NCBI GenBank assembly: GCA_034678405.1
Contig: JAXDBW010000042.1
Location: 136 to 64,135, forward strand
DNA from: Patescibacteria group bacterium
Lineage (GTDB): Bacteria; Patescibacteriota; Patescibacteriia; UBA10025; JAHIVO01
Direction: 5' to 3'
DNA: 64,000 nucleotides
The notes under the pieces were generated by a model. It made no database searches, had not been told where the DNA came from, and was given only the letters and a program-made list of their open reading frames with translations. Below, piece by piece: positions 3,479-64,000 of this stretch (the first letter of the stretch is position 1; each line of letters opens with the position of its first letter). The position numbers and the translations under genes are program-made.

Positions 3479-3490
3479 AGTCAATGTATT

Positions 3491-6128: not shown

Positions 6129-6596
6129 ATGTTCCTTGCCATAGTAGCATCAGTAATCATCGGGGTAGCGCCAGCAGACAGCGCACTCAGACACGACTGT
6201 ACCCAGAAACAGCTCAGCTATGACACCGTGGTCGCGATCTTTCAGACCCTCGACGGCATCCTTGCGGCCGAGCAGGCATACCAGGACACACATCGTGCAT
6301 ATCTGACGTGTAACGTGATGACCGAGCTGGTCTCTATCGATTCCCTCGAGCGCGCCCTGGAGTGTACCTTCCCGGCGAGCATGATGCATGACACGATGTA
6401 CTGCGTGGCGATTAGGCACCAATGGAATGATCCGGACGCTAACGAAAATCCCTGCCGTGAGTTGATCATCAGCCTCTATAATAGTACATCTCCGACAAAT
6501 CTGCCGATTGCCCGACTCACCTACTGTGCCGACACCGGCCGGCGCGAATACGAATACGTCGAGTACGGTAAATCTGTCCACACCCTACTCGAGTGA
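6129..6596 (+). CDS. Hypothetical secreted protein
   Basis: AGGAGG RBS, a signal-peptide-like N-terminus MFLAIVASVIIGVAPADSA, and a terminator just downstream. Confidence 0.5.
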   Translation: MFLAIVASVIIGVAPADSALRHDCTQKQLSYDTVVAIFQTLDGILAAEQAYQDTHRAYLTCNVMTELVSIDSLERALECTFPASMMHDTMYCVAIRHQWNDPDANENPCRELIISLYNSTSPTNLPIARLTYCADTGRREYEYVEYGKSVHTLLE

Positions 6597-6621
6597 TATG
6601 ACGCCGCTCAATATCACAAGA

Positions 6622-6659
6622 CCCGCCCATTACTATGAGTGCGGCGGGTTTGTTTTTTT
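6622..6659 (+). terminator. Rho-independent terminator
   Basis: CCCGCC...GGCGGG hairpin followed by TTTGTTTTTTT. Confidence 0.65.
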
Positions 6660-6737
6660 CTGTCGACCGGTGTATGCTTACCGGCGAAACATACATCGAA
6701 CATACTTTGTCAAACACTCTAGCCCAGGAAGGTGCAT

Positions 6738-6908
6738 ATGTGTAATCGTTGTTGTGCTGCCGGTGTACTGTCCGACGACCAGTACGAGTGTCATAACTGC
6801 GGCCATATCGGCCGAACTGATCAGGGTAATCCTGGTCACTGTGTCGAATGTGGTCACGACATGCGCGATCCGGTTGATCGCGCACGATCATCCATGGACA
6901 ATGGATGA
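6738..6908 (+). CDS. Small Cys/His-rich zinc-ribbon protein (56 aa). It is absent from the ORF track because it is shorter than 60 aa.
   Basis: AGGAAGG RBS upstream of the ATG. Translation is MCNRCCAAGVLSDDQYECHNCGHIGRTDQGNPGHCVECGHDMRDPVDRARSSMDNG, with three CxxC/CxxCGH pairs. Confidence 0.45.
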   Translation: MCNRCCAAGVLSDDQYECHNCGHIGRTDQGNPGHCVECGHDMRDPVDRARSSMDNG

Positions 6909-6926
6909 GATACGTTCCGACACCAA

Positions 6927-6958
6927 CAAAAAAAGCGGCTCAGTCTCTGAGTCGCTTT
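6927..6958 (-). terminator. Rho-independent terminator downstream of guaA (hairpin is bidirectional)
   Basis: AGCGGCTCAG-TCTC-TGAGTCGCT hairpin. Read on the minus strand it is followed by TTTTTTT. Confidence 0.6.
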
Positions 6959-6966
6959 CCTACTTA

Positions 6967-8499: not shown

Positions 8500-9494
8500 A
8501 CTGTATCTTTCACAAATGACGCCTCAAATGCCCACTGCGTGCATTGGTCAATCTGACGCTGGGTCAGGATCTTGTTTTTCTTCAGGAGCTCCTGCTCCTG
8601 CTGGATATTAGTTCGGTACATTTCTGGACCATCAGTATTGATCGTAAACTTGATGTTGTATTTCAAATATTTTTTCACGATGGATCGAAGATCATTGATA
8701 TTACGCACCACCGAATTCTTGAGGTTTGAAGTGGGGCACATTTCGAGAGTGATGTCATTTTCAACTACCTGCTGCATGAGCTTTGGATCCTTCGTACAGA
8801 GAAATCCGTGACCGATCCGATCCGGTTTGATCTTGTTGACGACATAGCGCATCTCGGGAATGTTCCCCTCTTCACCAGTATGGATCGTTACCCCGAGGCC
8901 AGCTGTACGCGCTTGTTTGAAGAGCGGGGCGTGCTTTTTCATGGAGAATGATTTGCGCTGTGGCCCTGCCACGTCGATACCCACGATACCAAATTTCTGG
9001 TACTTAATCGCTTTCTGGAGAATAATCTTATTCTGCTTGAGCGTCAGCATCCGATCCATCATCAGGATGAGGCCAGCTTTCACCTGCGGGTACTCGAGCT
9101 GCGCCTGCTGCATGCCCCAGATAGCGGACATGATCATATGATCGAGATCTTTCTCACCGCCACGATTACGGAACATCGGATTGAATCGAAGTTCGTGCAG
9201 GACAATATTACTGGCACGATAGCCACCACCGATGACGCTCCGGACAGACTCCCGCAGTGGCTCCGGTGATGACTGGATCAGCTCCGTCCAGTGGAAGAAA
9301 TCATAGTGCATCCGGTTGAGGTTGGGATTTTTTTCATCCTCATCCATCGTGATCATTGCTTCGAAATCCCAGTAGTCTTTGCTCGGCAGTTTGACGCCCC
9401 GCTGATGCGCGATCGACCACAGCATGGGCGGTGCTACGGATGAACCGAGGTGAGCATGCAATTCAACGCGCGGTTTCGTATGATTCCGTTTCAT
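8496..9494 (-). CDS. add: Adenosine deaminase
   Basis: 332 aa with HAHL metal-binding motif, TIHTGEEG and TINTDGP motifs. Confidence 0.85.
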   Translation of the reverse strand: MKRNHTKPRVELHAHLGSSVAPPMLWSIAHQRGVKLPSKDYWDFEAMITMDEDEKNPNLNRMHYDFFHWTELIQSSPEPLRESVRSVIGGGYRASNIVLHELRFNPMFRNRGGEKDLDHMIMSAIWGMQQAQLEYPQVKAGLILMMDRMLTLKQNKIILQKAIKYQKFGIVGIDVAGPQRKSFSMKKHAPLFKQARTAGLGVTIHTGEEGNIPEMRYVVNKIKPDRIGHGFLCTKDPKLMQQVVENDITLEMCPTSNLKNSVVRNINDLRSIVKKYLKYNIKFTINTDGPEMYRTNIQQEQELLKKNKILTQRQIDQCTQWAFEASFVKDTV

Positions 9495-9495: not shown

Positions 9496-10557
9496 TTAAT
9501 AATTCGGAGCTTTCTTGCTAATAGTTATTGAGTGTGGATGCGACTCTTTCAGGCTGGCATGTGATATCTGGATAAATCGCGCTTGCCGCGGCATATCCGC
9601 AATAGTCATCGCCCCGATATAGCCCATGCCACTCTTCAGCCCGCCCACCATATGCCAGATGACGTCCTCGACCGGGCCTTTGTATGGTGTCACTGCCTCT
9701 ACGCCCTCAGGGACATACTTGGTTTTGCCTTTTTGGAAATAGCGATCACTGGATTTGCCGCCCTTCATCGCGCCCAGACTGCCCATACCGCGATACTGTT
9801 TGTATTTCTTACCGCCGATAGTAATGACTGAGCCGGGGGTTTCGGCGGTACCGGACAGCATGGAGCCGAGCATCACGGACGAAGCACCCGCGGCCAGAGC
9901 TTTCACGATGTCGCCGGAGTATTTGATGCCACCGTCGGCTATCACGGGCACCTTTTTCTGCTTTGCTACTTTTACTACATCCATGATGGCCGTGAGCTGT
10001 GGGACACCAATACCAGCCACGATGCGGGTCGTACAAATAGCGCCAGGGCCGATGCCCACCTTCAGCCCGTCAGCGATCGGCAGCAATGCTTTGGCTGCTT
10101 CGGCCGTACCGATGTTTCCCATCACCAGAGGTGTCCTGATGGCTTTTTTGATTTTTCGTGCGCTGGCCATGATCCGCGTGTGATGGGCGTGCGCGCAGTC
10201 GACGAAGATAACGGTCGCCCCGGCTTTGTCTAGCGCTGTCGCGCGCTCAATATCATGTGGTCCGACTGCCGCGCCGACTTGGACCTTCGCTTTCTTCGCT
10301 TCTCGGACCCACTTCACCTGTTGTTCGATAGTACAGTTGCGATGCAGGACGGCCATGCCCCCGAGTTTCCCGAGCGTGATAGCCATCTTCGCTTCACTCA
10401 CCGTATCCATCGCGGCTGAGAGGATCGGTACGTCCAAAAAAACCGTCTGAGTGAGACGGGTCTTGAGATTAATCCGATCACGATCCACCCCGGATTTACG
10501 TGGCTCCAGGAGCACGTCATCAAAGGTAATGCCTTGTCGGATCGCGGGAGTAGCCAT
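9496..10557 (-). CDS. guaB: IMP dehydrogenase / GMP reductase family protein (no CBS subdomain)
   Basis: 353 aa TIM barrel with catalytic loop [10 protein letters not shown] and [24 protein letters not shown]. It is too short to contain the CBS pair, so IMPDH versus GuaC is not resolved. Confidence 0.8.
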
Positions 10558-10632
10558 GCGGCTAATAATCTATGTTGTTAAAAATGTTGGAAACAGTATA
10601 CCACGCGTACGAGGATACGTCTACTCTACTAT

Positions 10633-10664
10633 AAAAAGCCCCGACCTGGCAAGCCAGATCGGGG
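10633..10664 (-). terminator. Rho-independent terminator after purA
   Basis: Minus strand: GCCCCGATCTGGCTTGCCAGGTCGGGGC followed by TTTTTAT. Confidence 0.65.
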
Positions 10665-10699
10665 TAGTGTGTATTCCTCCTAGAGAAGTACTGATGTGG

Positions 10700-12145
10700 T
10701 TATTGACGGACGATCAGGTGTGCCCGGTCCGGACCAGTGCTGATGTACCCGTAGTGGCAACCGGCAATCTCCTCGAACGTCTCGATGTACTGGCGGGCGT
10801 TGGCTGGCAGTTTCGCGAAATCGGTCTCGCCGGTGAAATCGTCATCCCACCCCGGCAGTACGGTGTATTCAGGACGAATCTGATCCCACACTTTCGGCGA
10901 GAACGGCATCTGATTCGGGCTGACTGCTGACTGACCGAGTCGATACCCGGTCACCAGCTTCACGGTTTCCAATCCCGTCAGATAGTCGAGTTTTGTCAGC
11001 GCCATCGTGTCAGGTGCATTCACCTGGCAGAAATAGTTGGTGAAAACCGGGTCGCCCCAGCCGAGTCGACGCGGACGGCCCGACGTGGCGCCGTACTCAT
11101 TGCCGACCACCCGCAGGTACTGACCAATCTCCTGGTCACTTGCCCGGCTGGCATTGATCTTCTCACGCATCTCGGCAATCCACGCCGTGCGCTGATCCTT
11201 CGGGATGCGCTTTTCCTTGTCCGTGATGGCATAGTCGCCGAGTTCACTCGGGAACGGGCCGTTGCCGACCCGGTGAGTGATCGCCGTATCGACGCCAATC
11301 TTGTAGCCGACTGCTTCGATGGGCAATCCGGAACCGACGGTGATACCGCCAAACGTACAGAGCCCCTGGGTATTATTGCCCCAGGTGCCCCAGTACGGAT
11401 CGAGCCACATACCCTGGGCACCTTCCCAGAGGATGCGCTTATTCTGATTGCTCCAGGCATCGAACAGATACTGACGGACATCACGGACGTAGGGTCGCAT
11501 CCGTCCGGCAATCGCCGTCAGGTACTCGGTCATTTCATCCGGAGTGTAGATGTGATCGTAATCGACCTCGCCTGCTTCGTGAGATGTAGCGACGGCCGCC
11601 TGCACGTCGGGCAACTGAAATATGCCCTCAAACGAGCGGTAGAAAACCCCCAGCCACCGGCGCAGTTCATCGTCGTCAAAAATCATCGACATATGCGGAT
11701 CCAATCGCAGGCCGATTGAGCCAGCGATCGCGCACATGCCGCGGCCCGTCGTGTAGGCCTTGTTGACGCCTTTGCGATTTTCGAAGTACCACTCGAGAAT
11801 CCGGTGCCACGGCATACTGAGAAACGCTCCGGTATCCACAAACAGACCCTTGAGATCGCCTCCCCGGGAGGCAAATTCATCGACCTCTTTGATCAGCTGG
11901 TACGGATCCACTCGGACGCCCTTGGTCAGGACGCAGATCTTACCAGCTGCCGCCCCGCTCGGGAGCAAATGGCCGACAAACTTGAAATCGCCGACCGTGA
12001 TCGTATGGCCGGCGTTAGCACCACCCTCATAGCGTGCGACAATCTCAGAATCTTCGGCACACGAGTCAACGATTTTTCCCTTTCCCTCATCGCCAACCTT
12101 TGCGCCAATCACGGCCTTGTTCTGTTTCTTCATGCTATCCTCCAA
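10700..12145 (-). CDS. purA: Adenylosuccinate synthetase
   Basis: GDEGKGKIVD P-loop, GGANAGHTI, and a C-terminal GTP-binding region. It is 481 aa, longer than the typical bacterial PurA. Confidence 0.9.
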   Translation of the reverse strand: MEDSMKKQNKAVIGAKVGDEGKGKIVDSCAEDSEIVARYEGGANAGHTITVGDFKFVGHLLPSGAAAGKICVLTKGVRVDPYQLIKEVDEFASRGGDLKGLFVDTGAFLSMPWHRILEWYFENRKGVNKAYTTGRGMCAIAGSIGLRLDPHMSMIFDDDELRRWLGVFYRSFEGIFQLPDVQAAVATSHEAGEVDYDHIYTPDEMTEYLTAIAGRMRPYVRDVRQYLFDAWSNQNKRILWEGAQGMWLDPYWGTWGNNTQGLCTFGGITVGSGLPIEAVGYKIGVDTAITHRVGNGPFPSELGDYAITDKEKRIPKDQRTAWIAEMREKINASRASDQEIGQYLRVVGNEYGATSGRPRRLGWGDPVFTNYFCQVNAPDTMALTKLDYLTGLETVKLVTGYRLGQSAVSPNQMPFSPKVWDQIRPEYTVLPGWDDDFTGETDFAKLPANARQYIETFEEIAGCHYGYISTGPDRAHLIVRQ

Positions 12146-12236
12146 TTCAGGATTATGGGTTTGGGTATTGTCAATGTCAAAAAACCACCCCTACCTTAGG
12201 GCAGAATGCGTCACTTGTCAATCGAATATAGCCAGC

Positions 12237-12881
12237 CTAGTCGATCCGCTGGCAGCCCACACAGGTAAACTCCCCCACTCGTGTCCGCTGGAGAGCAGCA
12301 ATATATCCACCGGTCCCGAGCGCGGCGCCAATATCGCGGGCGAGCGAGCGAATGTACACGCCAGATTCACATACGACTGAGATGGCTAGCTCGGGATAGC
12401 GATAGCCAGTAATGCTAATTGATTTGATCGTGACCGTCCGCGTCCCGAGATTCATCCGTTCTCCAGCTCGCGCCCGTTCGTGAGCCCGTTTACCATGATA
12501 ATGAACAGCGCTATGCTGCGGCGGAGCTTGCTGGATAGTACCGACGAACTGCGGGAGGATGCGCTCAATCTCCTGCTGCGTCGGCGGCTGGGTCACTGAC
12601 TGAGGCGTGATCTCTCCCTCCGCGTCATCAGTCGTACTGGTCGCCCCGAGTCTGATAATGGCATGGTATTCCTTCTCCTGCTGCTGGTACTCAGCAAGTC
12701 GCCGGGTAGCCTCCCGGCCGATACCCACCACTAATACGCCCGAGGCCAGTGGGTCCAGCGTGCCGGCATGTCCGATGCGCCGCTCGCCGGTCTGGCGGCG
12801 GAGTTTGTCGATCACATCGTGCGACGTCATGCCGGATGGTTTGTAGATCGGGATGATCCCTTTGGAAATTGACTCGGTCAT
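12237..12881 (-). CDS. truB: tRNA pseudouridine(55) synthase
   Basis: IPIYKPSGMTSHDVIDKLRR...GHAGTLDPLASGVLVVGIG motifs, including the catalytic Asp. Confidence 0.9.
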   Translation of the reverse strand: MTESISKGIIPIYKPSGMTSHDVIDKLRRQTGERRIGHAGTLDPLASGVLVVGIGREATRRLAEYQQQEKEYHAIIRLGATSTTDDAEGEITPQSVTQPPTQQEIERILPQFVGTIQQAPPQHSAVHYHGKRAHERARAGERMNLGTRTVTIKSISITGYRYPELAISVVCESGVYIRSLARDIGAALGTGGYIAALQRTRVGEFTCVGCQRID

Positions 12882-12886
12882 AGGTA

Positions 12887-13615
12887 TTGCCTAGAATATA
12901 TCATATGCCTGACCAGCGCAATACAACCCTCCCGACCCTGATCGCCTCCGACTGGCATCTCGGGGGGCCTGACGCACAACCAAAACGCATTTTGGATACG
13001 CTCAAACGTGTGCCCTGCAGTCGCTTCATGATGCTCGGCGATATGTATAACGACCCCTCCAGCCATCGCCTGCCCGCGGATGTCCGGGCGCTCGAGGAAT
13101 TCATAAAAAATATTTCCGTTCCGAAAATATTTATCGAGGGTAATCATGACTTCCAGCACCTCAATTCATACATCCCCGACTTAGGGTTTACCCTCTACCC
13201 GCAAGACACGTACTATGCATGGGAACTTAATGGCCATCGCCATATTGCTATCCATGGACTCCAATTTGATGGGTGGGTCTTCCGCTATCCCTGGCTGACT
13301 CGTACTGCCGATCGATTCATTAATCATTTCAAGGAATGGTTCCCGCGTCTCGGGCACTATTTCGACCAGAAAGCGCGCGAACGCCCCCACAAAGTCCCCC
13401 GGATGATCCGTGGCGCGGTTGCTTTTGCCAAAAAACATGGCGCCGACCGAATCTACATCGGACACCACCACGCTCATACCTCGATTGAACGAGTAGACGG
13501 GATCGAAGTGATTAATGTCGGCTGCATGACCAATAAACCTCACGAGCAGTTCTCCTATACGCTCGAGAACCCCGACGGCCGGGTAGAATTTGTGAACGAA
13601 CCAAATCCAGCATAA
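12887..13615 (+). CDS. Calcineurin-like metallophosphoesterase
   Basis: SDWHLGG (DxH), GDMYND (GDxxD) and GNHD motifs. The true start may be the ATG at 12905, because the truB start lies only 5 nt away on the other strand. Confidence 0.75.
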   Translation: MPRIYHMPDQRNTTLPTLIASDWHLGGPDAQPKRILDTLKRVPCSRFMMLGDMYNDPSSHRLPADVRALEEFIKNISVPKIFIEGNHDFQHLNSYIPDLGFTLYPQDTYYAWELNGHRHIAIHGLQFDGWVFRYPWLTRTADRFINHFKEWFPRLGHYFDQKARERPHKVPRMIRGAVAFAKKHGADRIYIGHHHAHTSIERVDGIEVINVGCMTNKPHEQFSYTLENPDGRVEFVNEPNPA

Positions 13616-53114: not shown

Positions 53115-53933
53115 CTATTCTGCTCGATTGAAACTCCAAAACGCAAGGATAAACATCACTAGCCCAAAGGCGAGGATGACCAGCATATTCTCGGTCGAGG
53201 AATGGAGCAGGATCGAGTCCAGCACCTGCTTCGGCGCGTCAGTGAAGACCACTCGCCGCAGCCCATCCACCGCATAGGTCAGCGGATTGACAGTAGAGAG
53301 GACTTCCATCCATTTCGGCACATTGGTCAGGGAGAAAAACGCGCCTGAGAGGAACATCATCGGGAAGAAGAGAAACTGAAAGACAAATTGGAACCCCTCC
53401 GCATTCCGCATCCGCGAGGCGATGAAGAGCCCGAGCGCCGTCACGGCAAATGACAGGAGGAGCGCGAAGAAGAGAATGCCGGGAATGGTCGACCACACGA
53501 TGTCGAGCCCGAAGAGGGGCGACAGGGCGATCAGGAGGACGGCCTGGAAGAGACCAATCACGATGCCCGAGAGCACCTTGCCAAACATGATCGAGGCTCG
53601 CGAGACGGGCGCGACGAGGATTTCCTTCAGGAAACCAAACTCCCGATCGGTTACGATCGAAATCGAGGTATTCAGCGCGACACCGAGCGTGGTCGTGGCG
53701 ATAATGCCGGGGAACATAAACTGGACGAAATTGAACCCGATACCCGGTCCCCCGCCCATGGATATGGTCGCCTCGAGTCCGACGCCGAAGATGCCGAGGA
53801 AAATGACCGGTTGCATCACCGAGCCGATGATTCGAGCTTTGTCTTTGAAAAACCGGAGCAGATCACGCATGAAGATATTACGCACCGAGCGGAGCTCCAG
53901 GGCAAATCCTGTTGTATTGGTAGTAGTTGTCAT
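53115..53933 (-). CDS. ABC-2 family transporter permease
   Basis: 272 aa with 6 TM segments and an ABC-2-like N-terminus (RDLLRFFKDKARIIGSVMQP). Confidence 0.8.
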   Translation of the reverse strand: MTTTTNTTGFALELRSVRNIFMRDLLRFFKDKARIIGSVMQPVIFLGIFGVGLEATISMGGGPGIGFNFVQFMFPGIIATTTLGVALNTSISIVTDREFGFLKEILVAPVSRASIMFGKVLSGIVIGLFQAVLLIALSPLFGLDIVWSTIPGILFFALLLSFAVTALGLFIASRMRNAEGFQFVFQFLFFPMMFLSGAFFSLTNVPKWMEVLSTVNPLTYAVDGLRRVVFTDAPKQVLDSILLHSSTENMLVILAFGLVMFILAFWSFNRAE

Positions 53934-54922
53934 CGTCTAAATCCTCTCTTCCTTAAAAAGTTTTTAGATTTCTCAGCGGCACTTGGCGCTTCATCCCGGA
54001 TCTTCGACCCCGTGAGTTTGATGAAGACATCATCAAGCGTCGGCTGCTTGAGTTCGATTGACTGCACTTGCTGGGGGAGCTCACGAATCAGTTTCGGTAG
54101 AACTTCATCGCCATCCTTTACGACTGCTTTTATCTTTTTCTCATCGATCCGGACGTCCTGAGAAAAATGATCCTTGATGTATGCGATGGCCTGATCGTTA
54201 TTGTCGGTCTGCATGGTAATGATATCACCGCCCACACCCTCTTTTAGTTTGTCAGGGGTATCCATAGCCACGATCTTTCCATGGTCAATGACGGCAATCC
54301 GGTCACAGTACTCGGCTTCATTGAGATAGTGAGTCGTCATGAAAAGGGTAATCTTCTCCTGCTTGGCGACTTTCAGGATGTACTGCCACATGGTCGCGCG
54401 GGTCTGCGGGTCGAGACCAATGGTTGGCTCATCGAGGAAGAGAATCTTCGGATAGTGGAGCATCCCGCGGACGATCTCGAGCCGTCGTTTCATCCCCCCG
54501 GAGAAATCCCGGACCGGCTTATTAGCCCGGTCAGCGAGATCGACCAGTTCGAGTAGCTCATGTGCTCGTTTCTTATACACACTCGAGGGTACACCATAGA
54601 ATTCCGCATGGAAGCGGAGATTCTGATAAGCGCTCAGTTCTTCGTCCAGGGTTGGCTCCTGGAATACCATGCCGATTGATTTTCGGACAGCGATACGCTC
54701 AGTCTTCACTGAGTGCCCGGCGATACGCGCCTCGCCGCTGGTGGGCTTGAGAAGCGTGGAGAACATTTTGATGGTAGTCGTCTTCCCGGCGCCATTTGGC
54801 CCGAGGAAACCAAACACCTCACCCTCCCGCACCGTGAAGCTGATCCCCTTTACCGCTTGGAAATCTTTAAACGAGCGGGTCAGGTTTTCGACTTCGATGA
54901 TTGTGGGGTTTGATTCGTTCAT
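53930..54922 (-). CDS. ABC transporter ATP-binding protein
   Basis: Walker A GPNGAGKTT, signature LSGGMKRRLEI, and Walker B ILFLDEPT. Confidence 0.92.
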   Translation of the reverse strand: MNESNPTIIEVENLTRSFKDFQAVKGISFTVREGEVFGFLGPNGAGKTTTIKMFSTLLKPTSGEARIAGHSVKTERIAVRKSIGMVFQEPTLDEELSAYQNLRFHAEFYGVPSSVYKKRAHELLELVDLADRANKPVRDFSGGMKRRLEIVRGMLHYPKILFLDEPTIGLDPQTRATMWQYILKVAKQEKITLFMTTHYLNEAEYCDRIAVIDHGKIVAMDTPDKLKEGVGGDIITMQTDNNDQAIAYIKDHFSQDVRIDEKKIKAVVKDGDEVLPKLIRELPQQVQSIELKQPTLDDVFIKLTGSKIRDEAPSAAEKSKNFLRKRGFRR

Positions 54923-55185
54923 GCGAGTTTTTGGATTTTTTTAAGCTTGTTAATAGTTTTCGATCCGGCCTTCACGTGTGATTCATACATGTTGATCATC
55001 TTGCCGATGTCTTGCTCGCGTACCAGGCCGATAATTGTGGAATGTTTGGTGAATACAACGAGTGAATCTCCCGGCTTGATATTGAGCTGGCGACGAAGTT
55101 TCGCAGGGATGACGATCTGCCCCTGGCTGGCGACGGTCACCGAACCATGGACGTCATACTGCATATGAGGGTTTTTCGGGGTCAT
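54919..55185 (-). CDS. AbrB/MazE/SpoVT-family DNA-binding protein
   Basis: VTVASQGQIVIPAKLRRQLNIKPGDSL is a swapped-hairpin SpoVT/AbrB motif. It overlaps the ABC ATPase start by 4 nt. Confidence 0.7.
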   Translation of the reverse strand: MTPKNPHMQYDVHGSVTVASQGQIVIPAKLRRQLNIKPGDSLVVFTKHSTIIGLVREQDIGKMINMYESHVKAGSKTINKLKKIQKLA

Positions 55186-55374: not shown

Positions 55375-56427
55375 TTACTGCTCTAGTATACGCGAGGACG
55401 GCTCACCGGGCAACTCCGATTTCGTCGTCTCGCCGTTTGCGGGGACATCCTTGAGAAATTTCAATCCGACATTTGAGAGGAAGATGAGTCCAATTGCCAC
55501 TTTCACAAAATCAGCTGCCCGCAGCACCATAGTAAAGGCCACGCCGAGTGACGGTGTATACCCGAGCGCCCGGAAGACAATGGCCTGACTGGCCTCAAAC
55601 GAACCGAGTGAGGCTGGAATCGGGATAAGAAATGAAAGAATCATGAAAACCATCATCACGAGAATGTCGAGGAAATGGCCTGATATATTGAGGGCGTGGA
55701 GCACCACCATAAACTGGATAAAGATGACGATCCCCCCGAGCAAAGACAGGAGTAGGCCTTCGATAAATATTCTTGGTCGCCGTTGGAAGAATTGGATAAT
55801 GATACTCTCGAAGTACAACATTTTTTCAAAAAATTTGCTCAGCCGTTTGAATCGGTGGATCCGGAAAAATTTAAGAAATGATGAAAAAAAGCCAATACCG
55901 CGATACGTCTGCACATAGAAAAGCCCAAGTAAGACTACCAGAATGAAAAGGGTCGCCACAAACACACTAATCGCCTCCCAGCTAATCTGATAGGTAAACA
56001 TAGCATAGATGAGCGCCCCGATGAGGAAAGGTAAGGGATACGTAAAGTCCAGAATCTTGTCCACGATAATCGAGGCCATGCCCCGAGAGAGACGGATTTT
56101 TGTCTTGCGTTTCAGTAGATAGGCTCGGATAGGCTCCCCTCCGACGTAGGGGCCGGGGGTGATGAAGCTGATAGCAAACCCGACGAACTTCGGGGCGAGG
56201 AGATCACGAAACGTGACGTGGTCCCCCTGCGCTGCGAGTACCCGCTGCCACCGGTAAATAGTGATGGCAATCTGCAATAACCCGAGACCAATCACGACCA
56301 GTAAAATCTCCCAAGAGAATGAAGAAAAGACACGAACGATTTCATCCGTGCCAATATACAACACCACGCCAATGAATAGCGCGATACCCACCAGCGTGGA
56401 GACGATAAAGAGAAGGATTTTCTTCAT
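55375..56427 (-). CDS. Flippase-like / UPF0104 (MprF N-terminal-like) integral membrane protein
   Basis: 350 aa with about 8 TM segments. Motif R.L..K.VG.A.S..TPG..GGEP.RAYLL. Confidence 0.55.
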   Translation of the reverse strand: MKKILLFIVSTLVGIALFIGVVLYIGTDEIVRVFSSFSWEILLVVIGLGLLQIAITIYRWQRVLAAQGDHVTFRDLLAPKFVGFAISFITPGPYVGGEPIRAYLLKRKTKIRLSRGMASIIVDKILDFTYPLPFLIGALIYAMFTYQISWEAISVFVATLFILVVLLGLFYVQTYRGIGFFSSFLKFFRIHRFKRLSKFFEKMLYFESIIIQFFQRRPRIFIEGLLLSLLGGIVIFIQFMVVLHALNISGHFLDILVMMVFMILSFLIPIPASLGSFEASQAIVFRALGYTPSLGVAFTMVLRAADFVKVAIGLIFLSNVGLKFLKDVPANGETTKSELPGEPSSRILEQ

Positions 56428-56496: not shown

Positions 56497-57294
56497 CTAG
56501 TCGTTCGGATAGACGACAATCACCACTTTCGCGCCCATATCGACATCGCCGCCGTTCCAATCGTGCATTGCCTCCATCACCACATCGATGTCATAGACGT
56601 AATTCTCCCCTTTCCGCGTGCCGACGTCATTGGTGATAAAGGTATCAGTAGTATAGCCCCGCACCACGAACATATGATACAGCGGACCACCACTACGGAA
56701 ATTTGGATTTCCGAGCTGCTTACCGGCAGCCGGGATGATGACTGGGCGTCCTGCCGCGATGTGCCGCTTGATATCATCCACCGACGGATCCTGGATCACG
56801 TCGACACGATCATAGCCCCAGTAGTCACGGATAAACTGCGCGGTCTCAGCCGCGGTTGTGTCTTTATAGAACCCCAAATGCTCCTCCTCCCAGGCAACGA
56901 GATCAAGAATCTCTTTATCAGCGATTTCTGGTGTGAATGTCTGCGATTGATAATAATAGTGGACCGTTATAGCCGAAGCCTCTTCACAGGCCTCCTGATA
57001 CGGATAGTCCCAGTTCGCATGCGGTGCCTGGGTGGTAAACGGCACATTGAGATTGAGCTCGTCAGGGATGGCGACCGGCTCCGGCTCAGCTACCGGGTCA
57101 GTATTTACGTTTTCATCTACAGTATCCGGCTCGGTGTCGACATTGCGGAAGGCATCATAATTCACCGCCGGTGGGGCGGGGTCTTCCATCCATTGCTCCC
57201 AAACGTCAGTAATCCGGTGACGGCCGAGGAATACCAGGCCCGCCAGGATGAAGATAATGAGTATGAAATTTAGCCAAAATATGTGTTTACGCAT
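56497..57294 (-). CDS. C39-like (Peptidase_C39_2-type) cysteine peptidase domain protein, membrane-anchored
   Basis: N-terminal TM segment. Candidate catalytic Cys in YQEACEEASAIT and His in HMFVVRGY. It is a paralog of the gene at 63178. Confidence 0.55.
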   Translation of the reverse strand: MRKHIFWLNFILIIFILAGLVFLGRHRITDVWEQWMEDPAPPAVNYDAFRNVDTEPDTVDENVNTDPVAEPEPVAIPDELNLNVPFTTQAPHANWDYPYQEACEEASAITVHYYYQSQTFTPEIADKEILDLVAWEEEHLGFYKDTTAAETAQFIRDYWGYDRVDVIQDPSVDDIKRHIAAGRPVIIPAAGKQLGNPNFRSGGPLYHMFVVRGYTTDTFITNDVGTRKGENYVYDIDVVMEAMHDWNGGDVDMGAKVVIVVYPND

Positions 57295-57367
57295 GCGCCA
57301 ACGATTAGCCTCCTATTAACTCGGGACTATAGAGGAGTGGGCACAGAAAGTCAAGCGGACAACACGA

Positions 57368-60300
57368 TTATTGTCCCTGCCTGACGATTTCCTTTAATCC
57401 CGTAATTCTATACTTGCCGCGTTTTTTTTCACCCCCCGCCGCATCGACATATGCGTACGGAGCACGGCCGCCTTTGGACTCGAGCATCTCTGACGTGTCA
57501 ATCAGGGTATAGCCCTCGGGTATCGCGTCCGCTTCTTTGATAAAGATGCGCATTCCCATCTGCTCTGCCTTTTTAACTGCGTGCGTTAACATCACTAAAT
57601 CAACGGCGCCACTGGCCGTGCTAGCATATTTCGTTTCGAGAAACAAAGCCGGCTCTCCGCCGGGTAACGACAACATACGGGTAATGCGACGTCCTATTGC
57701 ATTGCCTTTCTCATTTCTGACGATGGTCGCCTTGGTATTCGGTTCACTGATATATGCCATCAGTGCTTCATTATATCCCCCACTATTGTAGTCCTGACAG
57801 GATTTTACCGGATCTGAACCTATTTTAAAACAAGTTTCCAAATCAGAACTGTCCTCCGCAACCAGATTCTGTGCCGCCTGATCACCCGTGCCCAGTTCCT
57901 GGAGTGTTTTTTCAATTGTAATAAAGACGCTTTCCGCGGCCGGAAACCTTTCTTTCAGGCTGCGTATAAATTTACTTAACTTTTGGCTGCGCTTGCCTTC
58001 CTTGCCCTCCAGTAAATATCCCTGTGCGATTTCTTCGGCTTTTAAAAGAGATAAGCGCACCATGTCACGTTCAGCCGAAAGTTGATCTTGGAATCTTTTC
58101 AATTCATCAATTTTGATATTAATTTCTTCACGTTCAGCGCCCTCAGCTCTACTTTTCTGCTTTCCTAAAGCACTTAACTCCTGGCCTATTTTCTTTATTT
58201 CTTCTTTGATTTCTGCGGTTATGGTTTCGGGATCTCCGGCGGCTAAGGCTTCGCTTCCAAGTTCTTGGATATTAGCCTGCAAAATTGATTTAATGGCAAT
58301 CGCAACGTCGGTACTGGATGTTTCGAGTGAGGCCGCCAAATCAGTTTTTTGATCCTGTGACCACGTATCAAATTGACTGTCTGTTAATGCCTCGGGCACA
58401 TGTCCTTCCATCTTAATATCTTCCAGAAGTCTATTCTTTTCAAACCGCCACTCGTGGTATGTACCCAAACCGGCTTGTTGGAAGGCTTCTTTCATCAGGG
58501 ACATAATTTCAGGATTATCGCGGTGTTTGGTTATATACAGCAGGATAGGCGAACCTCCTCCAAATGATTCAATGGCCTTTTGCTGTTCTGATGGGCTTAG
58601 ATCTGGTGCAGTAAGCTGATTACTGATTTCTACACCCAGTTGTTCGCGAAGCTGCGCCCAAGTTTCCGGCAATGTGGACTCGGTCGATTCCTGTTTCATT
58701 CTCTTCAATAGTGCAAAGCTATACGCGTCTTCCAAAAGCCTCTCTTCATCGCTTTCAGATGGATTCTCAGCTGCAAAAATCTTTTCATAATCATCCTGTA
58801 ATCCCTCACTGTGCAACGTCCCGATTGATTTGTAGAGGCGATATCCTTTGGCCAAAAGGGTTGTTTTTTGTTCAGGTGTTTTGGCGCGCTCTAAACGTTT
58901 GAAAATATTACTAATGGTCTTCGGCGCGAATTGAATACGTTCAGTGTCATTCGCCGCATCCTCCATAATTTTTTCCTGGGATATTTCCGGTACAAACCGT
59001 CTGATCTGATCGGCCATTTCATAGCCAACGAACGGATTAATTTTAATCCACGATCGGATTAATCCAGGCCTGTCCTTTTCATCAATATATCCTATGATTC
59101 TGTCGGCGGAGACTAATGCTTCCGAGGGGTGCTTATCAACCAGCTGCTTCAATTTCATTTTTGCCCAATCCGGGGAAACAGCTTTTGACCATTTATGGAA
59201 ATAATCAAGCGCGGCCTCTTCATCCATCCCTATCACACGTTCTAAAAATAATCTGGCCTCATCCTCATTAAATAAATATGAAAAATTAGGGAAATAATCC
59301 AAAACCTGATGAGGAACTAGATATGATAGTTTTTCCACAAACTTAACGAGATCCTCCTCAGTGCCAAGAACCTGACGGATTTTATCCAACTCCATCAAGG
59401 CATGTTGCGGATTCATTTCCGCCTTCCGCAACAGAAAATCCATCAGTTCATCCTCTGAAACCAGCTCCCGTAAAAAATTACCATCCTCAGTCTGAGATCT
59501 GTACGTTTCTAAAAAACGAAAATCTCTTGCTTCGGCGAGAAGTCCTCGTCCGAATTCCCTTTTTTCTTCGCCGGACATGTGCGACATTTGGTCAAAATGA
59601 CGTCGGCCATATACAATACTTTCTGGATATTCTGTCATCAACCGCTTAATGAGCTGTGGGCGCTCTTCCTCCGGTATGACATCGAGGACGATATGGCTAT
59701 TGCGCAGGGCCTCATACGGGGACTCCCGGATGATGATTCGACTGACCCGTTCTCGCTGCTCCGGTGTAATTAATTTATGCCGCAAAACCTCTTCGCTGAA
59801 CATGGGGCTGAAATTTTTTTCTAGCGTGGTGACACACCTCTCCAATATGTCTTCCATGCCGTGTTCACCAAAATACTCCGCAACGAGTTCCGGCTGATCT
59901 AATAAATCATCAGGGGCGTATTGCGCCATGCGTTTCACGGTTTCCGCCTTCCATCCTTCACCTAAAACTGATGCATACTGATTTAAAGTTTTTTCTGGGT
60001 CACTAAAATGATAATGTATGTTTTCCTCCTGGGTAAGCTTGCTTAAGGCTTGTCTTAGTCTTTCTTTGTCAGCTTCAGTAGTAAACAAGGCGCAGTAATG
60101 AGCCACTACTTCACTGGGGACTAAGGCCCTGTCTATCCGTTGTAAAAACGCATCCATCGCCTGCTCACGAGTAAACACTCCTTCACTTACCAATTGATTT
60201 ATATTTTCAAAAAGCTCGTGATCTGAAACCATTTCTGCACAATGTTTTAGGGTTTCCGGCGTCAATCGTGCCCTGACGGAATCTTTTTTAAATAGATTAT

Positions 60301-61075
60301 CTATAGAATACGGACTTTGTGCCGCCGCGTTTACAACCAGCTCATTCAATTCGTGATCATCAAATAAACTGTCATATTTATCAAGATAAAACAAAAACAG
60401 CCGTGGATCCCTTTCGGCAGCTTTCTGAGCAATATTTCTTATCTCATCATCATGAAAGATACCCCTCAATTCCTTGGAATTCATTAAAAAAGCGTCAGGG
60501 CGTTCCTGGAGAGTGTTTCGAATCAACGAATAAAATGATTCAACATCACCACTTGCCTGATCGCGGGCTGCATCCGTGAAAAAACGTTCAGACAAGCCGC
60601 CACTACCCTGCATTCGACTCAATATTCTCTCCATGAGGCCCGTCGGTATCCCGTACTCAAACGGAAGTGGATGGCTATCTCCTTTTGAACCATGACCACG
60701 ATATTTATACGCATTATGTTCATTTTTTCTCAATTTTCTCAAAGCCCCCAAAAAAGTCTGATACTGCTCCTGTAAATCGGAATCTGACTTCATTCGGTCT
60801 TTTAATTCATCTGCCGACAGATGATATATTTGCTCCGGCGGTTCCGGGATCGGCGTCTTATCAACGTCTTCATCATAGTCCATCATACGCGAAGCTTCAG
60901 CAAATCGAAACTGCTGCTCCAGCTCTTGGGGACCTTTTTGGGTGCCAATTGTCTGGACATCTTCCGATGAGGGAACTGTTTTTTCTGGACTATTCGGACA
61001 ATCCGAAGCATGCTCCCCGATTTCCACCGGATAGCCGCAATGCGGGCATTGTGCTGTTGGTTGTTTTTCAGACAC
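57368..61075 (-). CDS. Giant (1235 aa) acidic helical protein with an N-terminal zinc-ribbon
   Basis: N-terminus MSEKQPTAQCPHCGYPVEIGEHASDCPN, shared with the 61520 gene. The rest has no recognisable catalytic motifs. Confidence 0.6.
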   Translation of the reverse strand: MSEKQPTAQCPHCGYPVEIGEHASDCPNSPEKTVPSSEDVQTIGTQKGPQELEQQFRFAEASRMMDYDEDVDKTPIPEPPEQIYHLSADELKDRMKSDSDLQEQYQTFLGALRKLRKNEHNAYKYRGHGSKGDSHPLPFEYGIPTGLMERILSRMQGSGGLSERFFTDAARDQASGDVESFYSLIRNTLQERPDAFLMNSKELRGIFHDDEIRNIAQKAAERDPRLFLFYLDKYDSLFDDHELNELVVNAAAQSPYSIDNLFKKDSVRARLTPETLKHCAEMVSDHELFENINQLVSEGVFTREQAMDAFLQRIDRALVPSEVVAHYCALFTTEADKERLRQALSKLTQEENIHYHFSDPEKTLNQYASVLGEGWKAETVKRMAQYAPDDLLDQPELVAEYFGEHGMEDILERCVTTLEKNFSPMFSEEVLRHKLITPEQRERVSRIIIRESPYEALRNSHIVLDVIPEEERPQLIKRLMTEYPESIVYGRRHFDQMSHMSGEEKREFGRGLLAEARDFRFLETYRSQTEDGNFLRELVSEDELMDFLLRKAEMNPQHALMELDKIRQVLGTEEDLVKFVEKLSYLVPHQVLDYFPNFSYLFNEDEARLFLERVIGMDEEAALDYFHKWSKAVSPDWAKMKLKQLVDKHPSEALVSADRIIGYIDEKDRPGLIRSWIKINPFVGYEMADQIRRFVPEISQEKIMEDAANDTERIQFAPKTISNIFKRLERAKTPEQKTTLLAKGYRLYKSIGTLHSEGLQDDYEKIFAAENPSESDEERLLEDAYSFALLKRMKQESTESTLPETWAQLREQLGVEISNQLTAPDLSPSEQQKAIESFGGGSPILLYITKHRDNPEIMSLMKEAFQQAGLGTYHEWRFEKNRLLEDIKMEGHVPEALTDSQFDTWSQDQKTDLAASLETSSTDVAIAIKSILQANIQELGSEALAAGDPETITAEIKEEIKKIGQELSALGKQKSRAEGAEREEINIKIDELKRFQDQLSAERDMVRLSLLKAEEIAQGYLLEGKEGKRSQKLSKFIRSLKERFPAAESVFITIEKTLQELGTGDQAAQNLVAEDSSDLETCFKIGSDPVKSCQDYNSGGYNEALMAYISEPNTKATIVRNEKGNAIGRRITRMLSLPGGEPALFLETKYASTASGAVDLVMLTHAVKKAEQMGMRIFIKEADAIPEGYTLIDTSEMLESKGGRAPYAYVDAAGGEKKRGKYRITGLKEIVRQGQ

Positions 61076-61523
61076 AGAGCATATCTGCTAACTCTTTTTT
61101 ACGTTCGAATGTCAGCCGAGGTAGCACTTTCCGTACCTCAGCCGTCGCCTCACGCAGTGTCTCGAGCTGCTCCATGCCCCGCAGAGCGATGGCCAGGCGC
61201 TGATCAATGCGCGCTTCCTCGGTGAGGCCGCCCTCAAGCACGACTGCATCATAGCCGTAATGTAATTGCAGTGTACGCACCACCACATCTACGAACCGGG
61301 GATGGTCTGACTGGATCGTCTGCTGCTCGATCGTTATCGCTTTTGAATCACCCTCCCCGGGCAGCATCGCGACGATGCCGTGCTTCCACCAATCATGTAG
61401 CTGCCGTTGCATCCGATACCGCTCGCCGACTGTACCGCCAGAAACAGAAAATATGCCACTTTCTAGTATGATATGCATTGTCCCTGATGGTCTGGTGATG
61501 GTAATTATCCGTTTCATATTCAT
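61068..61523 (-). CDS. Hypothetical protein (151 aa) between the two zinc-ribbon genes
   Basis: Overlaps both neighbours by 4-8 nt, which indicates translational coupling. Confidence 0.5.
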   Translation of the reverse strand: MNMKRIITITRPSGTMHIILESGIFSVSGGTVGERYRMQRQLHDWWKHGIVAMLPGEGDSKAITIEQQTIQSDHPRFVDVVVRTLQLHYGYDAVVLEGGLTEEARIDQRLAIALRGMEQLETLREATAEVRKVLPRLTFERKKELADMLCV

Positions 61524-63148
61524 GATGCTCCGGTAACACTAAAAAGATACTCCTTAATCATATTTGGGCTGTATTCCTTTTCTGAGTACTGTTTTTGCCA
61601 TCGGGCGATTTCCTGGTCGAGAATATCTTCTCCCCACCGCTCAGGATCCTCCAGTTGTCGGCTGACCTGATTTGCGAGAACGGCGAGAGATTCTTTTTCG
61701 CGATCGGATAAGGATTCAGAAAAATCAGTCAGGGATTGTTCTATCCGCTGCCGGGAGGCTTGGACGATCTCTTCGGCAATGGGCGGAAAGATGAGATTGA
61801 AATCAACGTGACTGGCGCGAGTCGCACCCTGCATAAAATGAAGAAACTCTTCTGATATACCCTGCCCACCATTCGCGAGCCATTCCTCGTAAGCTCGCTC
61901 GATTTCCGTCTGTTTCAGCTCCTCTATAGCTGTGCGCACTTGGGGGGGTATCAGCGCCCAGGCACGGTCTCGTTCATCATCGATGACCTGTCGCATATAT
62001 TCCGAACGTGATTGGGACGCAGCACCGACGTCATAATTTGGATCCTTGCGTTTCACCCAATTATCTACCAATGCGAAATCCTCGGGGTATTCACTCTGAA
62101 ACCAGCTCGGGTTGGATAAATAGGCTCCACCAATTTCTGCCCAATACTCAGTGACTTGATTATAGAGCTGGGCTGAGGAATCGGAGTCGTTGATTGCCTG
62201 CACATACTCAGTGATATATCGGTTCTCCCCTTGGAGAAATCGTTTCGTGACCATGGTCAACAGCTCAGCACGTTCGGGTATAGTCATCTGGTTATCCCGT
62301 AACCAGTCATTGGCATGCATAAACTCATGGTTGGCCGTACTCAAAAGTTCATCAATCTGTTCGTGAAGATACAGATCTATGCTGGTTGGTCCTGTGTCTT
62401 TGCCCCGAGCTTGGCCGGCCTTTACCCAGCCCTCTCCGAGATTGTACTGACCGGCCATCGATCGCTCCTCGGCACTAGCATCTGCCCGATAAATAATTGA
62501 GTCAATGTCGCCGCGGATCCAGTGCTCGGGATATGTTTCTTCAAATATCTTCCTAATTGCCTCGGACTCAAATGACGTCCCCTCAAAACCGGTAATCACC
62601 TCGGGTGATGTCGGTATCTGCCCCAATGCCCGACGCTTGAAATTATCTTGGGCCACATTCATAAATAACTGATATTCACTATCACCATATATGTCCCGCA
62701 GATAATCCAGATCGCCCTGAGCTTCGTGCAGCTCCTGTGCTATGTGCTCAAAACTCTCCGTGAAATTCTCCGACTGCTGCCACTGGGTATCGAGTTGTTG
62801 CCAAAACGGCACGGTTTCGGCCGTGTTAGTCGACTGTTGCTGTGATTCCCGCGATACCCGCTCGATGGCCATCCCTTCCTTCAGTGGAGAGAGTAGCGCC
62901 AGGGAAATAAAACCAATCTCAGCCAGATGATTGAGGCTGCGCTTCATACGTTCGATACGGCTGGAAGAGACCCGTTCTGATCGTTCTGCTTCCAGGGTCT
63001 GTAATTGCTCCGTGATATCAATTAGCTCAGGATCCGGTAGTGCCTCCTGATCACCCACCTCTCGATTCGGGCAGCCCACAGCATGCTCGCCCGTTTCTAC
63101 GGGATAGCCACAGTACTGACATTGTGATTGTGGTTGTGCTTCAGGCAT
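61520..63148 (-). CDS. Zinc-ribbon N-terminus protein with an HExxH motif (542 aa)
   Basis: N-terminus MPEAQPQSQCQYCGYPVETGEHAVGCPN, and an internal ANHEFMHANDW. Confidence 0.6.
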   Translation of the reverse strand: MPEAQPQSQCQYCGYPVETGEHAVGCPNREVGDQEALPDPELIDITEQLQTLEAERSERVSSSRIERMKRSLNHLAEIGFISLALLSPLKEGMAIERVSRESQQQSTNTAETVPFWQQLDTQWQQSENFTESFEHIAQELHEAQGDLDYLRDIYGDSEYQLFMNVAQDNFKRRALGQIPTSPEVITGFEGTSFESEAIRKIFEETYPEHWIRGDIDSIIYRADASAEERSMAGQYNLGEGWVKAGQARGKDTGPTSIDLYLHEQIDELLSTANHEFMHANDWLRDNQMTIPERAELLTMVTKRFLQGENRYITEYVQAINDSDSSAQLYNQVTEYWAEIGGAYLSNPSWFQSEYPEDFALVDNWVKRKDPNYDVGAASQSRSEYMRQVIDDERDRAWALIPPQVRTAIEELKQTEIERAYEEWLANGGQGISEEFLHFMQGATRASHVDFNLIFPPIAEEIVQASRQRIEQSLTDFSESLSDREKESLAVLANQVSRQLEDPERWGEDILDQEIARWQKQYSEKEYSPNMIKEYLFSVTGAS

Positions 63149-63177
63149 AGTCCAATACCTTACTACACGACTAAAAT

Positions 63178-63996
63178 TTATTCAACGACCACACCGCTAT
63201 TCCCCAGTAGCCCCCACATCCACGTGAAGTGGTCGACGGAGAGATACCGTTCACCAGAGAGTGGATCAAGCACGATGATGCGCGTCGGTCCGGACGCTGC
63301 GCCGACATACCCAATCACCACGAACGTGTGTTCGCCCATGATAGCGTCAATATGTTTACCATCAGGTGTTTGCCAGTCGATATCCGTACCACTACCGGCT
63401 GTACCCCAGATGATCACCGGATGACCCTGCTGGATTTCACCGATGATATGCCCCAGCTGCCCTCCAGTAAAGGCTCGCGTGGTGCGATAGGCAGCGCCCG
63501 CCTGGGCAATCGGATCCCAGTACACTCCATACCCCGTCGAGGGCTGGCGGCCGTCGATATCACCAACAAATGCTACGTTTGGATCACCCCAGACGCCATC
63601 TGATTTGGGCGTGGGATCAAAACCAATCGCGTCTATGAGTGGTTGCTCATCAACATTTACCCCAAAATACGATAATGCCATTTTCAGGGTGGCTACTTCA
63701 CAGCTCAGCGGATGATCCTGTCGATCGTAGGCGATGTTCAGTTTCGTGACGGATAGCTCAGTCGCAAATGTGATCTGCTGATCAGTATCCGATGGAAACC
63801 CGTCGACACTCTTAATTCCCTTGGCGAGAGTGACCGTATAGGTGCTATTAAATTCAAGAGTGGCTGCGGGAGTAAATATCATAGTGTTTCCATCCCACGA
63901 GATGGTGCCGTCCACGGCTGGTGAAATGCTAAACTTACTTGCGGCTGAATCCGTATTTACCGCCTGATCAAATGCGATGCGGATGGCACTACTCAC
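63178..63996 (-). CDS. C39-like cysteine peptidase domain protein. The N-terminus may extend beyond the window end.
   Basis: Candidate catalytic Cys in HPLSCEVATLKMALSYFG and His in HTFVVIGY. The first in-frame start inside the window is the GTG at 63996, and the frame is still open at 64000. Confidence 0.55.
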   Translation of the reverse strand: MSSAIRIAFDQAVNTDSAASKFSISPAVDGTISWDGNTMIFTPAATLEFNSTYTVTLAKGIKSVDGFPSDTDQQITFATELSVTKLNIAYDRQDHPLSCEVATLKMALSYFGVNVDEQPLIDAIGFDPTPKSDGVWGDPNVAFVGDIDGRQPSTGYGVYWDPIAQAGAAYRTTRAFTGGQLGHIIGEIQQGHPVIIWGTAGSGTDIDWQTPDGKHIDAIMGEHTFVVIGYVGAASGPTRIIVLDPLSGERYLSVDHFTWMWGLLGNSGVVVE

Positions 63997-64000
63997 GCTG

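Follow-up and report, generated by a model that had tools for sequence, protein, structure and literature searches.

How do two neighbouring proteins with unrelated bodies come to begin with the same short N-terminal head, and what do the genes around them have to do with it? The question is raised by a gene cluster near the end of a 64,000-nucleotide stretch of contig JAXDBW010000042.1 (assembly GCA_034678405.1) from a Patescibacteria group bacterium; this whole stretch is hereafter called the window. In the direction of transcription, the cluster begins with the 3' part of a gene of about 630 amino acids (aa), comprising its last Big_5 domain and a Peptidase_C39_2 domain (63178..64000). It continues with gene 1 (542 aa; 61520..63148), which encodes a head-bearing gluzincin, gene 2 (151 aa; 61068..61523), which encodes a soluble protein, gene 3 (1235 aa, GTG start; 57368..61075), and a gene for a 265-aa C39_2 protein (56497..57294). 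Genes 1 to 3 are referred to as the cassette, of which gene 3 is the exchangeable member, and the two C39_2 genes are its upstream and downstream flanks. An earlier note on this DNA had listed the same five open reading frames (ORFs), all of which were confirmed, and had seen in them a mirror-symmetric module; this symmetry did not hold, since all the genes lie in the same direction on the minus strand, and the C39_2 proteins differ in architecture and are 17% identical (BLASTP E = 0.45). The stop of gene 1 overlaps the start of gene 2 by 4 nucleotides (nt; 61520–61523), and the stop of gene 2 overlaps the start of gene 3 by 8 nt (61068–61075). Such overlaps had been taken to imply co-translation; the overlaps themselves are there, and they suggest translational coupling instead. 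The answer at which we arrive is that the locus looks polymorphic and modular, and that its head and its gluzincin family are both new.

The head occupies residues 1–28 of gene 1 (63065..63148; MPEAQPQSQCQYCGYPVETGEHAVGCPN) and of gene 3 (60992..61075; (M)SEKQPTAQCPHCGYPVEIGEHASDCPN, also given as V/MSEKQPTAQCPHCGYPVEIGEHASDCPN). Nineteen of the 28 residues (~68%) are identical, and a BLASTP alignment of 69% identity over 26 aa is the sole similarity of the two proteins; the claim of a shared N-terminus therefore stood, while the description of the two heads as nearly identical was too strong. The candidate zinc ligands, C10, C13, H22, and C26 in gene 1, include all three cysteines of that protein and are invariant across nine aligned heads, with a shorter H-x-C spacing in one related locus (L015). 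No GG, GA, or GS was found at or after the conserved block in these nine heads. The head always starts at residue 1 and is followed by an acidic or proline-rich linker. When DNA was searched with the degenerate pattern C-x2-CGYP-x-[DE]-x2-EH-x3-C, the window gave two matches and 100 shuffles gave none. Across 185,579 species-representative genomes the pattern came up at four loci; JGI metagenomes had it in 10 stretches, and the viral contigs of IMG/VR did not have it. A 45-aa head profile run against a database of 5.8 billion proteins, with 11 candidates gathered, returned one protein (P0008). Because the pattern is so rare in both shuffled and genomic DNA, the similarity is specific and not a generic CxxC spacing, which was the objection that the earlier note had raised against itself.

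Several observations indicate that the head is conserved as protein. Its identity is 0.64–0.71 in all comparisons, versus 0.29–0.45 for orthologous bodies. Within the window, 6 of the 18 identical residues are encoded by differing codons, and the 40 nt upstream of the two heads are unrelated, so that conservation acts at the protein level; a DNA-level repeat or regulatory element, considered as another reading of the head, was ruled out on the same grounds. The two heads of L002 share an identical tract of 66 nt, and both heads of L015 have the derived sequence GEHDCPNAP, which shows occasional intragenomic gene conversion, or co-evolution, of the heads. At least five to six unrelated bodies carry the head: the HExxH body of gene 1, the 1235-type body of gene 3, and proteins of 1524 aa (L002), 639 aa (L006), 1392 aa (L015), and 280 aa (L013). 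Neither BLASTP nor hhalign detected similarity between any two of these bodies, which extends to more classes the earlier observation of one head on two unrelated C-terminal parts. Zinc-ribbon models of Pfam did not match the head at E ≤ 0.1, and in PHROGs there was only a faint match to PHROG 2451 (E 0.16–0.34). Against PDB, the first knuckle was most similar to L37Ae and eL37, weakly in both cases (E 0.05–0.5).

The 280-aa protein stands in a different context. It is encoded at 1580–2422 of L013, and also in L024, L025, and L027, has the same N-terminal head (KKCEYCGYPTETGEHHPLC) with weak resemblance to the zinc-binding region of eIF5 (E=0.055), and has a body with a kinase-like ILADFG motif; a phmmer search of it against PDB sequences gave nothing significant. 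No C39_2 genes adjoin it. The L013 contig is binned as Gammaproteobacteria, and the neighbours there are a TspO-like protein, ArsR, a permease, and a glycosyltransferase.

Gene 1 encodes, in order, the CCHC head, an acidic linker, a moderately hydrophobic helix, a gluzincin core, and a C-terminal helical extension. The core (approximately residues 190–375; 62024..62581) contains the HEFMH motif that had been noticed earlier, now placed at residues 274–278 (62315–62329), together with a near-invariant Y315 and an invariant E334 (62147–62149). An alignment of 73 sequences shows no variation at H274, E275, H278, N280, and E334 and very little at Y315, W336, A337, and some other positions; because the HExxH and the downstream glutamate do not vary, gene 1 has the signature of a gluzincin. 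The AlphaFold 2 (AF2) model has a predicted local distance difference test score of 63 overall and of 60–93 from about residue 190 onwards, and Foldseek ranked lethal factor (LF) and PPEP-1/Zmp1 first, with weak E-values. On this model, the predicted peptidase has a lethal-factor/PPEP/MtfA-like fold, in place of the DUF4157/SprT relationship that had been guessed for it. Gene 1 has no match in Pfam at E ≤ 0.1 and none in NCBIfam, and faint hints of M90 (E=0.17, in the relative P0013) and of SprT occur on relatives only. A profile of the family (A8) had no matches among PDB sequences, nor did phmmer searches with the three cassette proteins give anything significant there. As neither a Pfam or NCBIfam model nor a PDB sequence matches it, this is a new sequence family of a known fold.

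Close homologues are very rare: gene 1 and gene 3 had four and three matches, respectively, in 5.8 billion proteins, and where a source was named it was Patescibacteria or Candidatus Kerfeldbacteria. The wider family is far larger, since a profile of the four closest homologues, run against 1.84 billion proteins, matched 653 cluster representatives at E ≤ 1e-3, of which 106 fell below 1e-30, with matches that span profile positions ~200–415. Most of these HExxH relatives are 300–400 aa long and have no head, which is found only in the nearest ones (P0009–P0012) and in shortened form in P0013. Every genomic context examined and every named source of the family belonged to Patescibacteria. A distant relative of 530 aa, P0110, has an N-terminal DUF6624 domain (Pfam E=1.5e-18) in place of the head, another example of the exchange of N-terminal modules in the family. 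Another distant relative, of 359 aa and encoded in L030, has a classical signal peptide and no partner gene.

The moderately hydrophobic helix of gene 1 (residues 71–89; 62882..62938; SLNHLAEIGFISLALLSPL) has a Kyte-Doolittle maximum of 1.24, and a helix is present at the same position before the core throughout the HExxH family. Its Hessa-scale sum is +7.7, with +3.5 to +7.7 (median +5.6) in the family, whereas the C39_2 anchors have sums of –4 to –5.6. A bitopic membrane protein was therefore considered and set aside, as sums of +3.5 to +7.7 do not make a confident transmembrane (TM) helix. None of the three cassette proteins has a signal peptide or a convincing TM helix.

Gene 2 had no match in Pfam, NCBIfam, PADLOC, PHROGs, or PDB sequences. 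A gene of the 151-aa family directly follows the HExxH gene in all 10 of the long-subfamily loci examined (the window, L002, L006, L009, L010, L015, L016, L017, L028, and L029), and because it does so in every one of them, the peptidase and its partner are an evolutionarily stable unit. The pairing does not depend on the presence of the head (missing on L017 and L029) or of C39_2 neighbours. The junction between the HExxH gene and its partner is usually an overlap of 1–8 nt, while that between gene 2 and gene 3 is not conserved, being an 8-nt overlap in the window and a gap of 2–68 nt elsewhere. On the 3.5-kb contig of L017, the head-less HExxH gene and its 149-aa partner are followed by a DUF7387/HicA toxin gene pair (3089–3521).

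Gene 3 is predicted to consist of the head, some 900 aa of all-alpha structure, a coiled-coil hairpin, and a conserved alpha/beta C-terminal domain of about 200 aa. No match was found for it in the family libraries or in PDB, and the giant proteins as a group had no recognisable toxin domain in the family-library searches. None of the three middle proteins matched a housekeeping family. The 1235-type body was found only in L001 (45% identity) and in L008 and L021 (31%). The most conserved block (residues 917–1235; 57371..58327) is 55–65% identical to L001 and L008, and in L008 it is a separate ORF. There, the gene (10001–13443) is split into parts of 756 and 319 aa, either as a frameshift or pseudogene or by an assembly error, while L021 has an intact ORF of 1239 aa (4783–8502). 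In L002, L006, and L015, the position of gene 3 is taken by unrelated head-bearing proteins of 1524, 639, and 1392 aa. Kinship between the gene-3 bodies had been considered on the basis of high full-length hhalign probabilities and was rejected, as the head alone accounted for them and the probability for the C-terminal domain by itself was below 1%.

Where the cassette lies, the surroundings are the same in all the loci: ScpA, ScpB, S11 peptidase, TIM, FBA, GAPDH, a holin_4_2-like gene, in some cases KAS III, the Big_5/C39_2 gene, a slot, the second C39_2 gene, LPG_synthase_TM, and in some cases ABC_tran and ABC2_membrane. The content of the slot differs in every genome type. Given as protein lengths in aa, it is 542 + 151 + 1235 in the window; 1250 only in L001; 1239 only in L008 and L021; 582 + 147 + 1524 + 225 and CorA in L002–L005; 592 + 149 + 639 in L006; 584 + 155 + 1392 in L015; 509 + 147 and a head remnant in L009; and 568 + 150, a 71-aa chimera, and CorA in L010. 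Groundwater is the source of L002–L005. In every related genome found, the genes adjoin one another. In L028, the HExxH gene and its 152-aa partner lie upstream, the two C39_2 genes stand side by side, and the head of the peptidase is shortened and degenerate; on account of this arrangement, bracketing by C39_2 genes is a feature of one sub-clade and not of the system.

The speed of this turnover is best seen against the closest relative of the window, L009. The flanks of the two loci are 88.7% (the 265-aa C39_2 protein) and 86.2% (the upstream C39_2 protein) identical, whereas identity falls to 45% for gene 1 and 54% for gene 2, and gene 3 is gone save for a remnant of its head (11658–11720; ..CSYCGYPVTSGEHD) directly after gene 2, in which homology stops right after GEH. 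Given these identities and the loss of gene 3, the cassette changes, by evolution or by replacement, at a much higher rate than its flanks. A second break was found in L010, where the 71-aa chimera, P0008 (10001–10216), joins residues 1–23 of the head to the C-terminal 48 aa encoded by the upstream Big_5/C39_2 gene. The fusion is at a shared GEHA microhomology, and the DNA is 94% identical to L010 7651–7810, so that P0008 reads as the scar of an illegitimate recombination in the slot. Judged from these sequences, the end of the head-coding DNA appears to be a recurrent breakpoint, a behaviour typical of polymorphic conflict loci.

The two flanking proteins were assigned to PF13529 (gathering cut-off 24 bits) with scores of 41.9 bits for the 265-aa protein (positions 1–141 of 143, E=1.9e-10) and 73.9 bits for the upstream one (1–142 of 143, E=2.6e-20), the latter matching Big_5 as well (PF13205, E=3.1e-11). 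The common Pfam family is as the earlier note had it; it also called the two genes paralogous, and at their level of identity they are not close paralogues. Because the ORF at 63178–63996 has no upstream stop before the window edge and its orthologues are of 627–639 aa, it is the 3' third of a gene of about 630 aa cut by that edge; the orthologues have an N-terminal TM anchor, several Big_5 domains, and C39_2. Candidate catalytic residues were located in the translations at the expected ends of the domains (Cys in SCEVA and His in GEHTF(VV) upstream, Cys in EACEEAS and His in YHMFVV in the 265-aa protein). The 265-aa protein has an N-terminal TM anchor (Kyte-Doolittle 2.84, Hessa sum –4.1), an Asn/Asp-rich linker, and Peptidase_C39_2, and since both proteins have strong N-terminal anchors, their catalytic domains should be extracytoplasmic.

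Of processing of the bacteriocin type, none of the three defining features tested was present. PF03412 reached 14.7 bits with one protein, versus a cut-off of 22, and did not match the other; no fusion to an ABC transporter was found, both proteins being free-standing and the nearest transporter being a separate ABC_tran and ABC2_membrane pair; and the heads have no double-glycine leader. PF13529 is catalogued as the catalytic domain of lysins of phages of Gram-positive hosts (PMC8223927), and PHROG endolysin families matched the C39_2 proteins weakly. The neighbouring S11 carboxypeptidase, LPG_synthase_TM, and ABC2 exporter suggest a cell-envelope neighbourhood. On L017 and L029, both short contigs, the HExxH gene and its ~150-aa partner occur without C39_2. 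Because the C39_2 genes are adjacent to each other in L028, and have strong anchors where the cassette proteins have none, we read them as probable backbone neighbours of the cassette. A system of variable bodies behind a common head, served by dedicated processing peptidases, had been proposed; the unrelated bodies remain, and a dedicated processing role of the peptidases gained no support, given the anchors, L028, the pairs without C39_2 on L017 and L029, and the missing PF03412, ABC-fusion, and double-glycine features.

The picture that we prefer, though tentatively, is that of a lineage-restricted, fast-diversifying cassette, in which the head is a docking module, the bodies are exchanged through the head DNA, and the partner tunes the peptidase. 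The cassette would sit between two conserved cell-envelope genes of a Kerfeldbacteria-like Patescibacterium, and its core would be a widespread, unannotated two-gene module of a gluzincin and a translationally coupled, soluble partner of ~150 aa. In the clade of the window, the peptidase would have acquired the 28-residue N-terminal CCHC zinc knuckle, and the same head would have come to start a second, giant, mostly alpha-helical protein, whose body was presumably swapped for unrelated ones, or deleted, from genome to genome. As a zinc-stabilised adaptor, the head may bring differently equipped proteins to a common partner or site inside the cell, while its DNA would double as the upstream homology arm for body swaps, as in polymorphic conflict systems. 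The 151-aa protein may be a regulator, an inhibitor, or a substrate adaptor of the peptidase. The C39_2 proteins would be hydrolases anchored in the membrane and active outside the cytoplasm, with the cell wall or surface proteins as their probable targets, and would belong to the backbone and not to the mechanism of the cassette. Some points weigh against this picture. AF2 confidence is low for residues 1–30 of gene 1, and zinc binding by the head is predicted from just the four conserved ligands. The conserved helix could be a marginal membrane anchor, placing the peptidase outside the cell beside the C39_2 domains, and a functional link between the cassette and the C39_2 genes is possible, given that the pair adjoins them even in L028. 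All the slot loci were found through cassette proteins, so that the frequency of empty slots is subject to ascertainment bias.

The same observations can be read in other ways. In a polymorphic or processed effector system, the head would be a trafficking or leader module through which the peptidase and the exchangeable giants, as effectors with no leader of their own, are exported. The 151-aa protein would then confer immunity or serve as a chaperone, and the membrane-anchored C39_2 peptidases would act outside the cell to take off the head or to bring the effectors to maturity. The conserved module strictly at residue 1 of variable bodies, the small gene immediately 3' of the peptidase, the hypervariability, and the recombination scars at the head-body junction would all suit it, as would the fact that, on all long contigs of the clade and even in the reordered L028, the cassette lies beside C39_2 genes. 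LF-like peptidases also include secreted toxins and the secreted PPEPs that cleave surface proteins (10.1101/2024.03.15.585006). Yet no secretion-system gene, C39-ABC fusion, or double-glycine motif was found and PF03412 stayed below its cut-off, a folded zinc knuckle would be unusual as an export signal, and the giants have no recognisable toxin domain; moreover, most of the 653 HExxH relatives do without the head, the pair does without C39_2 on L017 and L029, and the peptidase stands alone in L030. We regard export of this kind as unlikely. A bolder form of it, in which the head is the address tag of a novel delivery or surface-display route in episymbiotic Patescibacteria, is given little credence here: an LF-like protease and exchangeable giant effectors would be the cargo, reaching the cell surface or the host cell, with bodies plugged in by recombination in the head DNA and C39_2 responsible for extracellular maturation.

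Also quite unlikely, to our mind, is an anti-phage or intracellular conflict cassette, with the giant helical protein as a fast-evolving sensor, the gluzincin as an effector protease restrained by the 151-aa protein, and the head assembling both into a complex or on nucleic acid. A hot spot of gene-content variation between conserved flanks is indeed typical of defence islands, the cassette proteins have no export signals, and zinc ribbons often mediate contacts with proteins or nucleic acids, the first knuckle here weakly resembling ribosomal ones. PADLOC-DB 2.0, however, gave no families at E ≤ 1 for any of the five proteins, no NTPase or nuclease motif and no match to viral contigs was found, and the components are not obligate partners, as L009, L010, and L028 lack the giant and L001 and L008 lack the peptidase pair. 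That independent occurrence of the parts, together with the tiny head clade and the backbone synteny (ScpAB-S11-TIM-FBA-GAPDH-holin...C39_2-LPG_synthase) kept across all the loci, would be expected if these were ordinary lineage-specific genes that evolve fast and share no function, the head having been duplicated once by a local duplication of a 5' end and kept as a structural zinc cap, and the neighbourhood being synteny inherited in the compact, co-directional genomes of the candidate phyla radiation (CPR). This explanation seems doubtful to a similar degree, as the head is the best-conserved part of very divergent proteins and is kept at the protein level, occurs on at least four unrelated gene-3 bodies and on the 280-aa protein in another genomic context, and has gone through repeated gene-conversion events, with a shared indel, within genomes.

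The analysis defines an unannotated family of metallopeptidases with an LF/PPEP/MtfA fold, with 653 cluster representatives, no Pfam or NCBIfam model, and a small constant partner. The locus is also a compact and testable case of modular evolution in ultra-small symbionts, in which a tiny head, predicted to bind zinc, is kept on unrelated bodies by selection and gene conversion and marks the breakpoint of body replacement. If the head is a tag for targeting or assembly, it offers a means of asking how CPR bacteria make use of large, fast-evolving proteins that have no leader, a question otherwise hard to address because these bacteria are not yet genetically tractable; if it is not, the locus is a narrow, lineage-specific curiosity. 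We consider the interest to be moderate, since the head clade is tiny and the function is deduced. Literature searches found no paper on these proteins.

Some further features of the window lie in or beside the cluster. On the minus strand at 57326..57376, a terminator-like hairpin (57376–57357) spans the stop of gene 3 and is followed by a promoter-like TTGACT-17-TATAGT (57354–57326) before the 265-aa C39_2 gene; these are consensus matches only, and they mark a possible transcription-unit boundary between gene 3 and that gene. A second promoter-like site (56495–56467) precedes the LPG_synthase_TM-like gene (55375–56427). Rfam and tRNA scans of the region gave no matches. The ABC_tran and ABC2_membrane pair (53115–54922) was assigned by position from orthologous loci, and an 88-aa ORF on the minus strand (54919–55185; SQGQIVIPAKLRRQLNIKPGDSLVV), whose sequence looks like a domain of the AbrB/SpoVT type, shares 4 nt with the start of the 330-aa gene of this apparent pair. 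Between 49445 and 53048, also on the minus strand, there is a run of membrane-anchored proteins with Asn/Thr-rich low-complexity linkers (e.g., NTNTANFNANQNVNTTTNENAN) and Cys-rich C-terminal domains, which are probably CPR surface proteins.

Compared with known systems, gene 1 is closest to the peptidases of families M34 (LF and PPEP-1, -2, and -3) and M90 (MtfA), with which it has in common the invariant HExxH, the invariant downstream glutamate, and the near-invariant tyrosine between them. The arrangement is parallel to H686/E687/H690, Y728, and E735 in LF and to H142/E143/H146, Y178, and E185 in PPEP-1. It differs from both families in lying outside their sequence models (Pfam ATLF and M90 do not match at E ≤ 0.1), in having an N-terminal zinc knuckle, a long helical N-region, and a helical C-terminal extension of ~170 aa, and in having a constant partner gene for a protein of ~150 aa. 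PPEPs act on large surface proteins (10.1101/2024.03.15.585006); unlike them, gene 1 has no signal peptide.

With double-glycine/PCAT systems, the locus shares a short common N-terminus on neighbouring products, papain-fold genes of the C39 clan, and an ABC transporter a few genes away. The peptidases of the window, however, are PF13529 and not PF03412, and are free-standing and TM-anchored, with a Big_5 fusion in the upstream one, instead of being part of an ABC exporter; the transporter near them belongs to the ABC2/DrrAB type, no GG, GA, or GS cleavage motif occurs in the head, and the substrates would be of 542–1524 aa. The likeness to polymorphic toxin loci goes further, with one conserved N-terminal module on unrelated bodies at one locus, a small gene directly 3' of the cassette peptidase, bodies that are deleted or displaced by non-homologous ones, the breaks falling where the module ends, and flanks far more conserved than the cassette. 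It differs from them in that no secretion or delivery system was found in the 10-kb flanks of eight genome types, no known trafficking, pre-toxin, toxin, or immunity family was matched by the cassette proteins, and no orphan cassette arrays were seen, while the head has only 28 residues and is predicted to bind metal. Among zinc-ribbon modules (zinc_ribbon_2/DZR; eL37/L37Ae), the first knuckle of the cassette head, (K/Q)CPxCG(Y/F)P, is typical; its second half differs in being H-x3-C (EIGEHAxxCPN) instead of a second CxxC, and the 28-residue sequence as a whole is specific to this clade.

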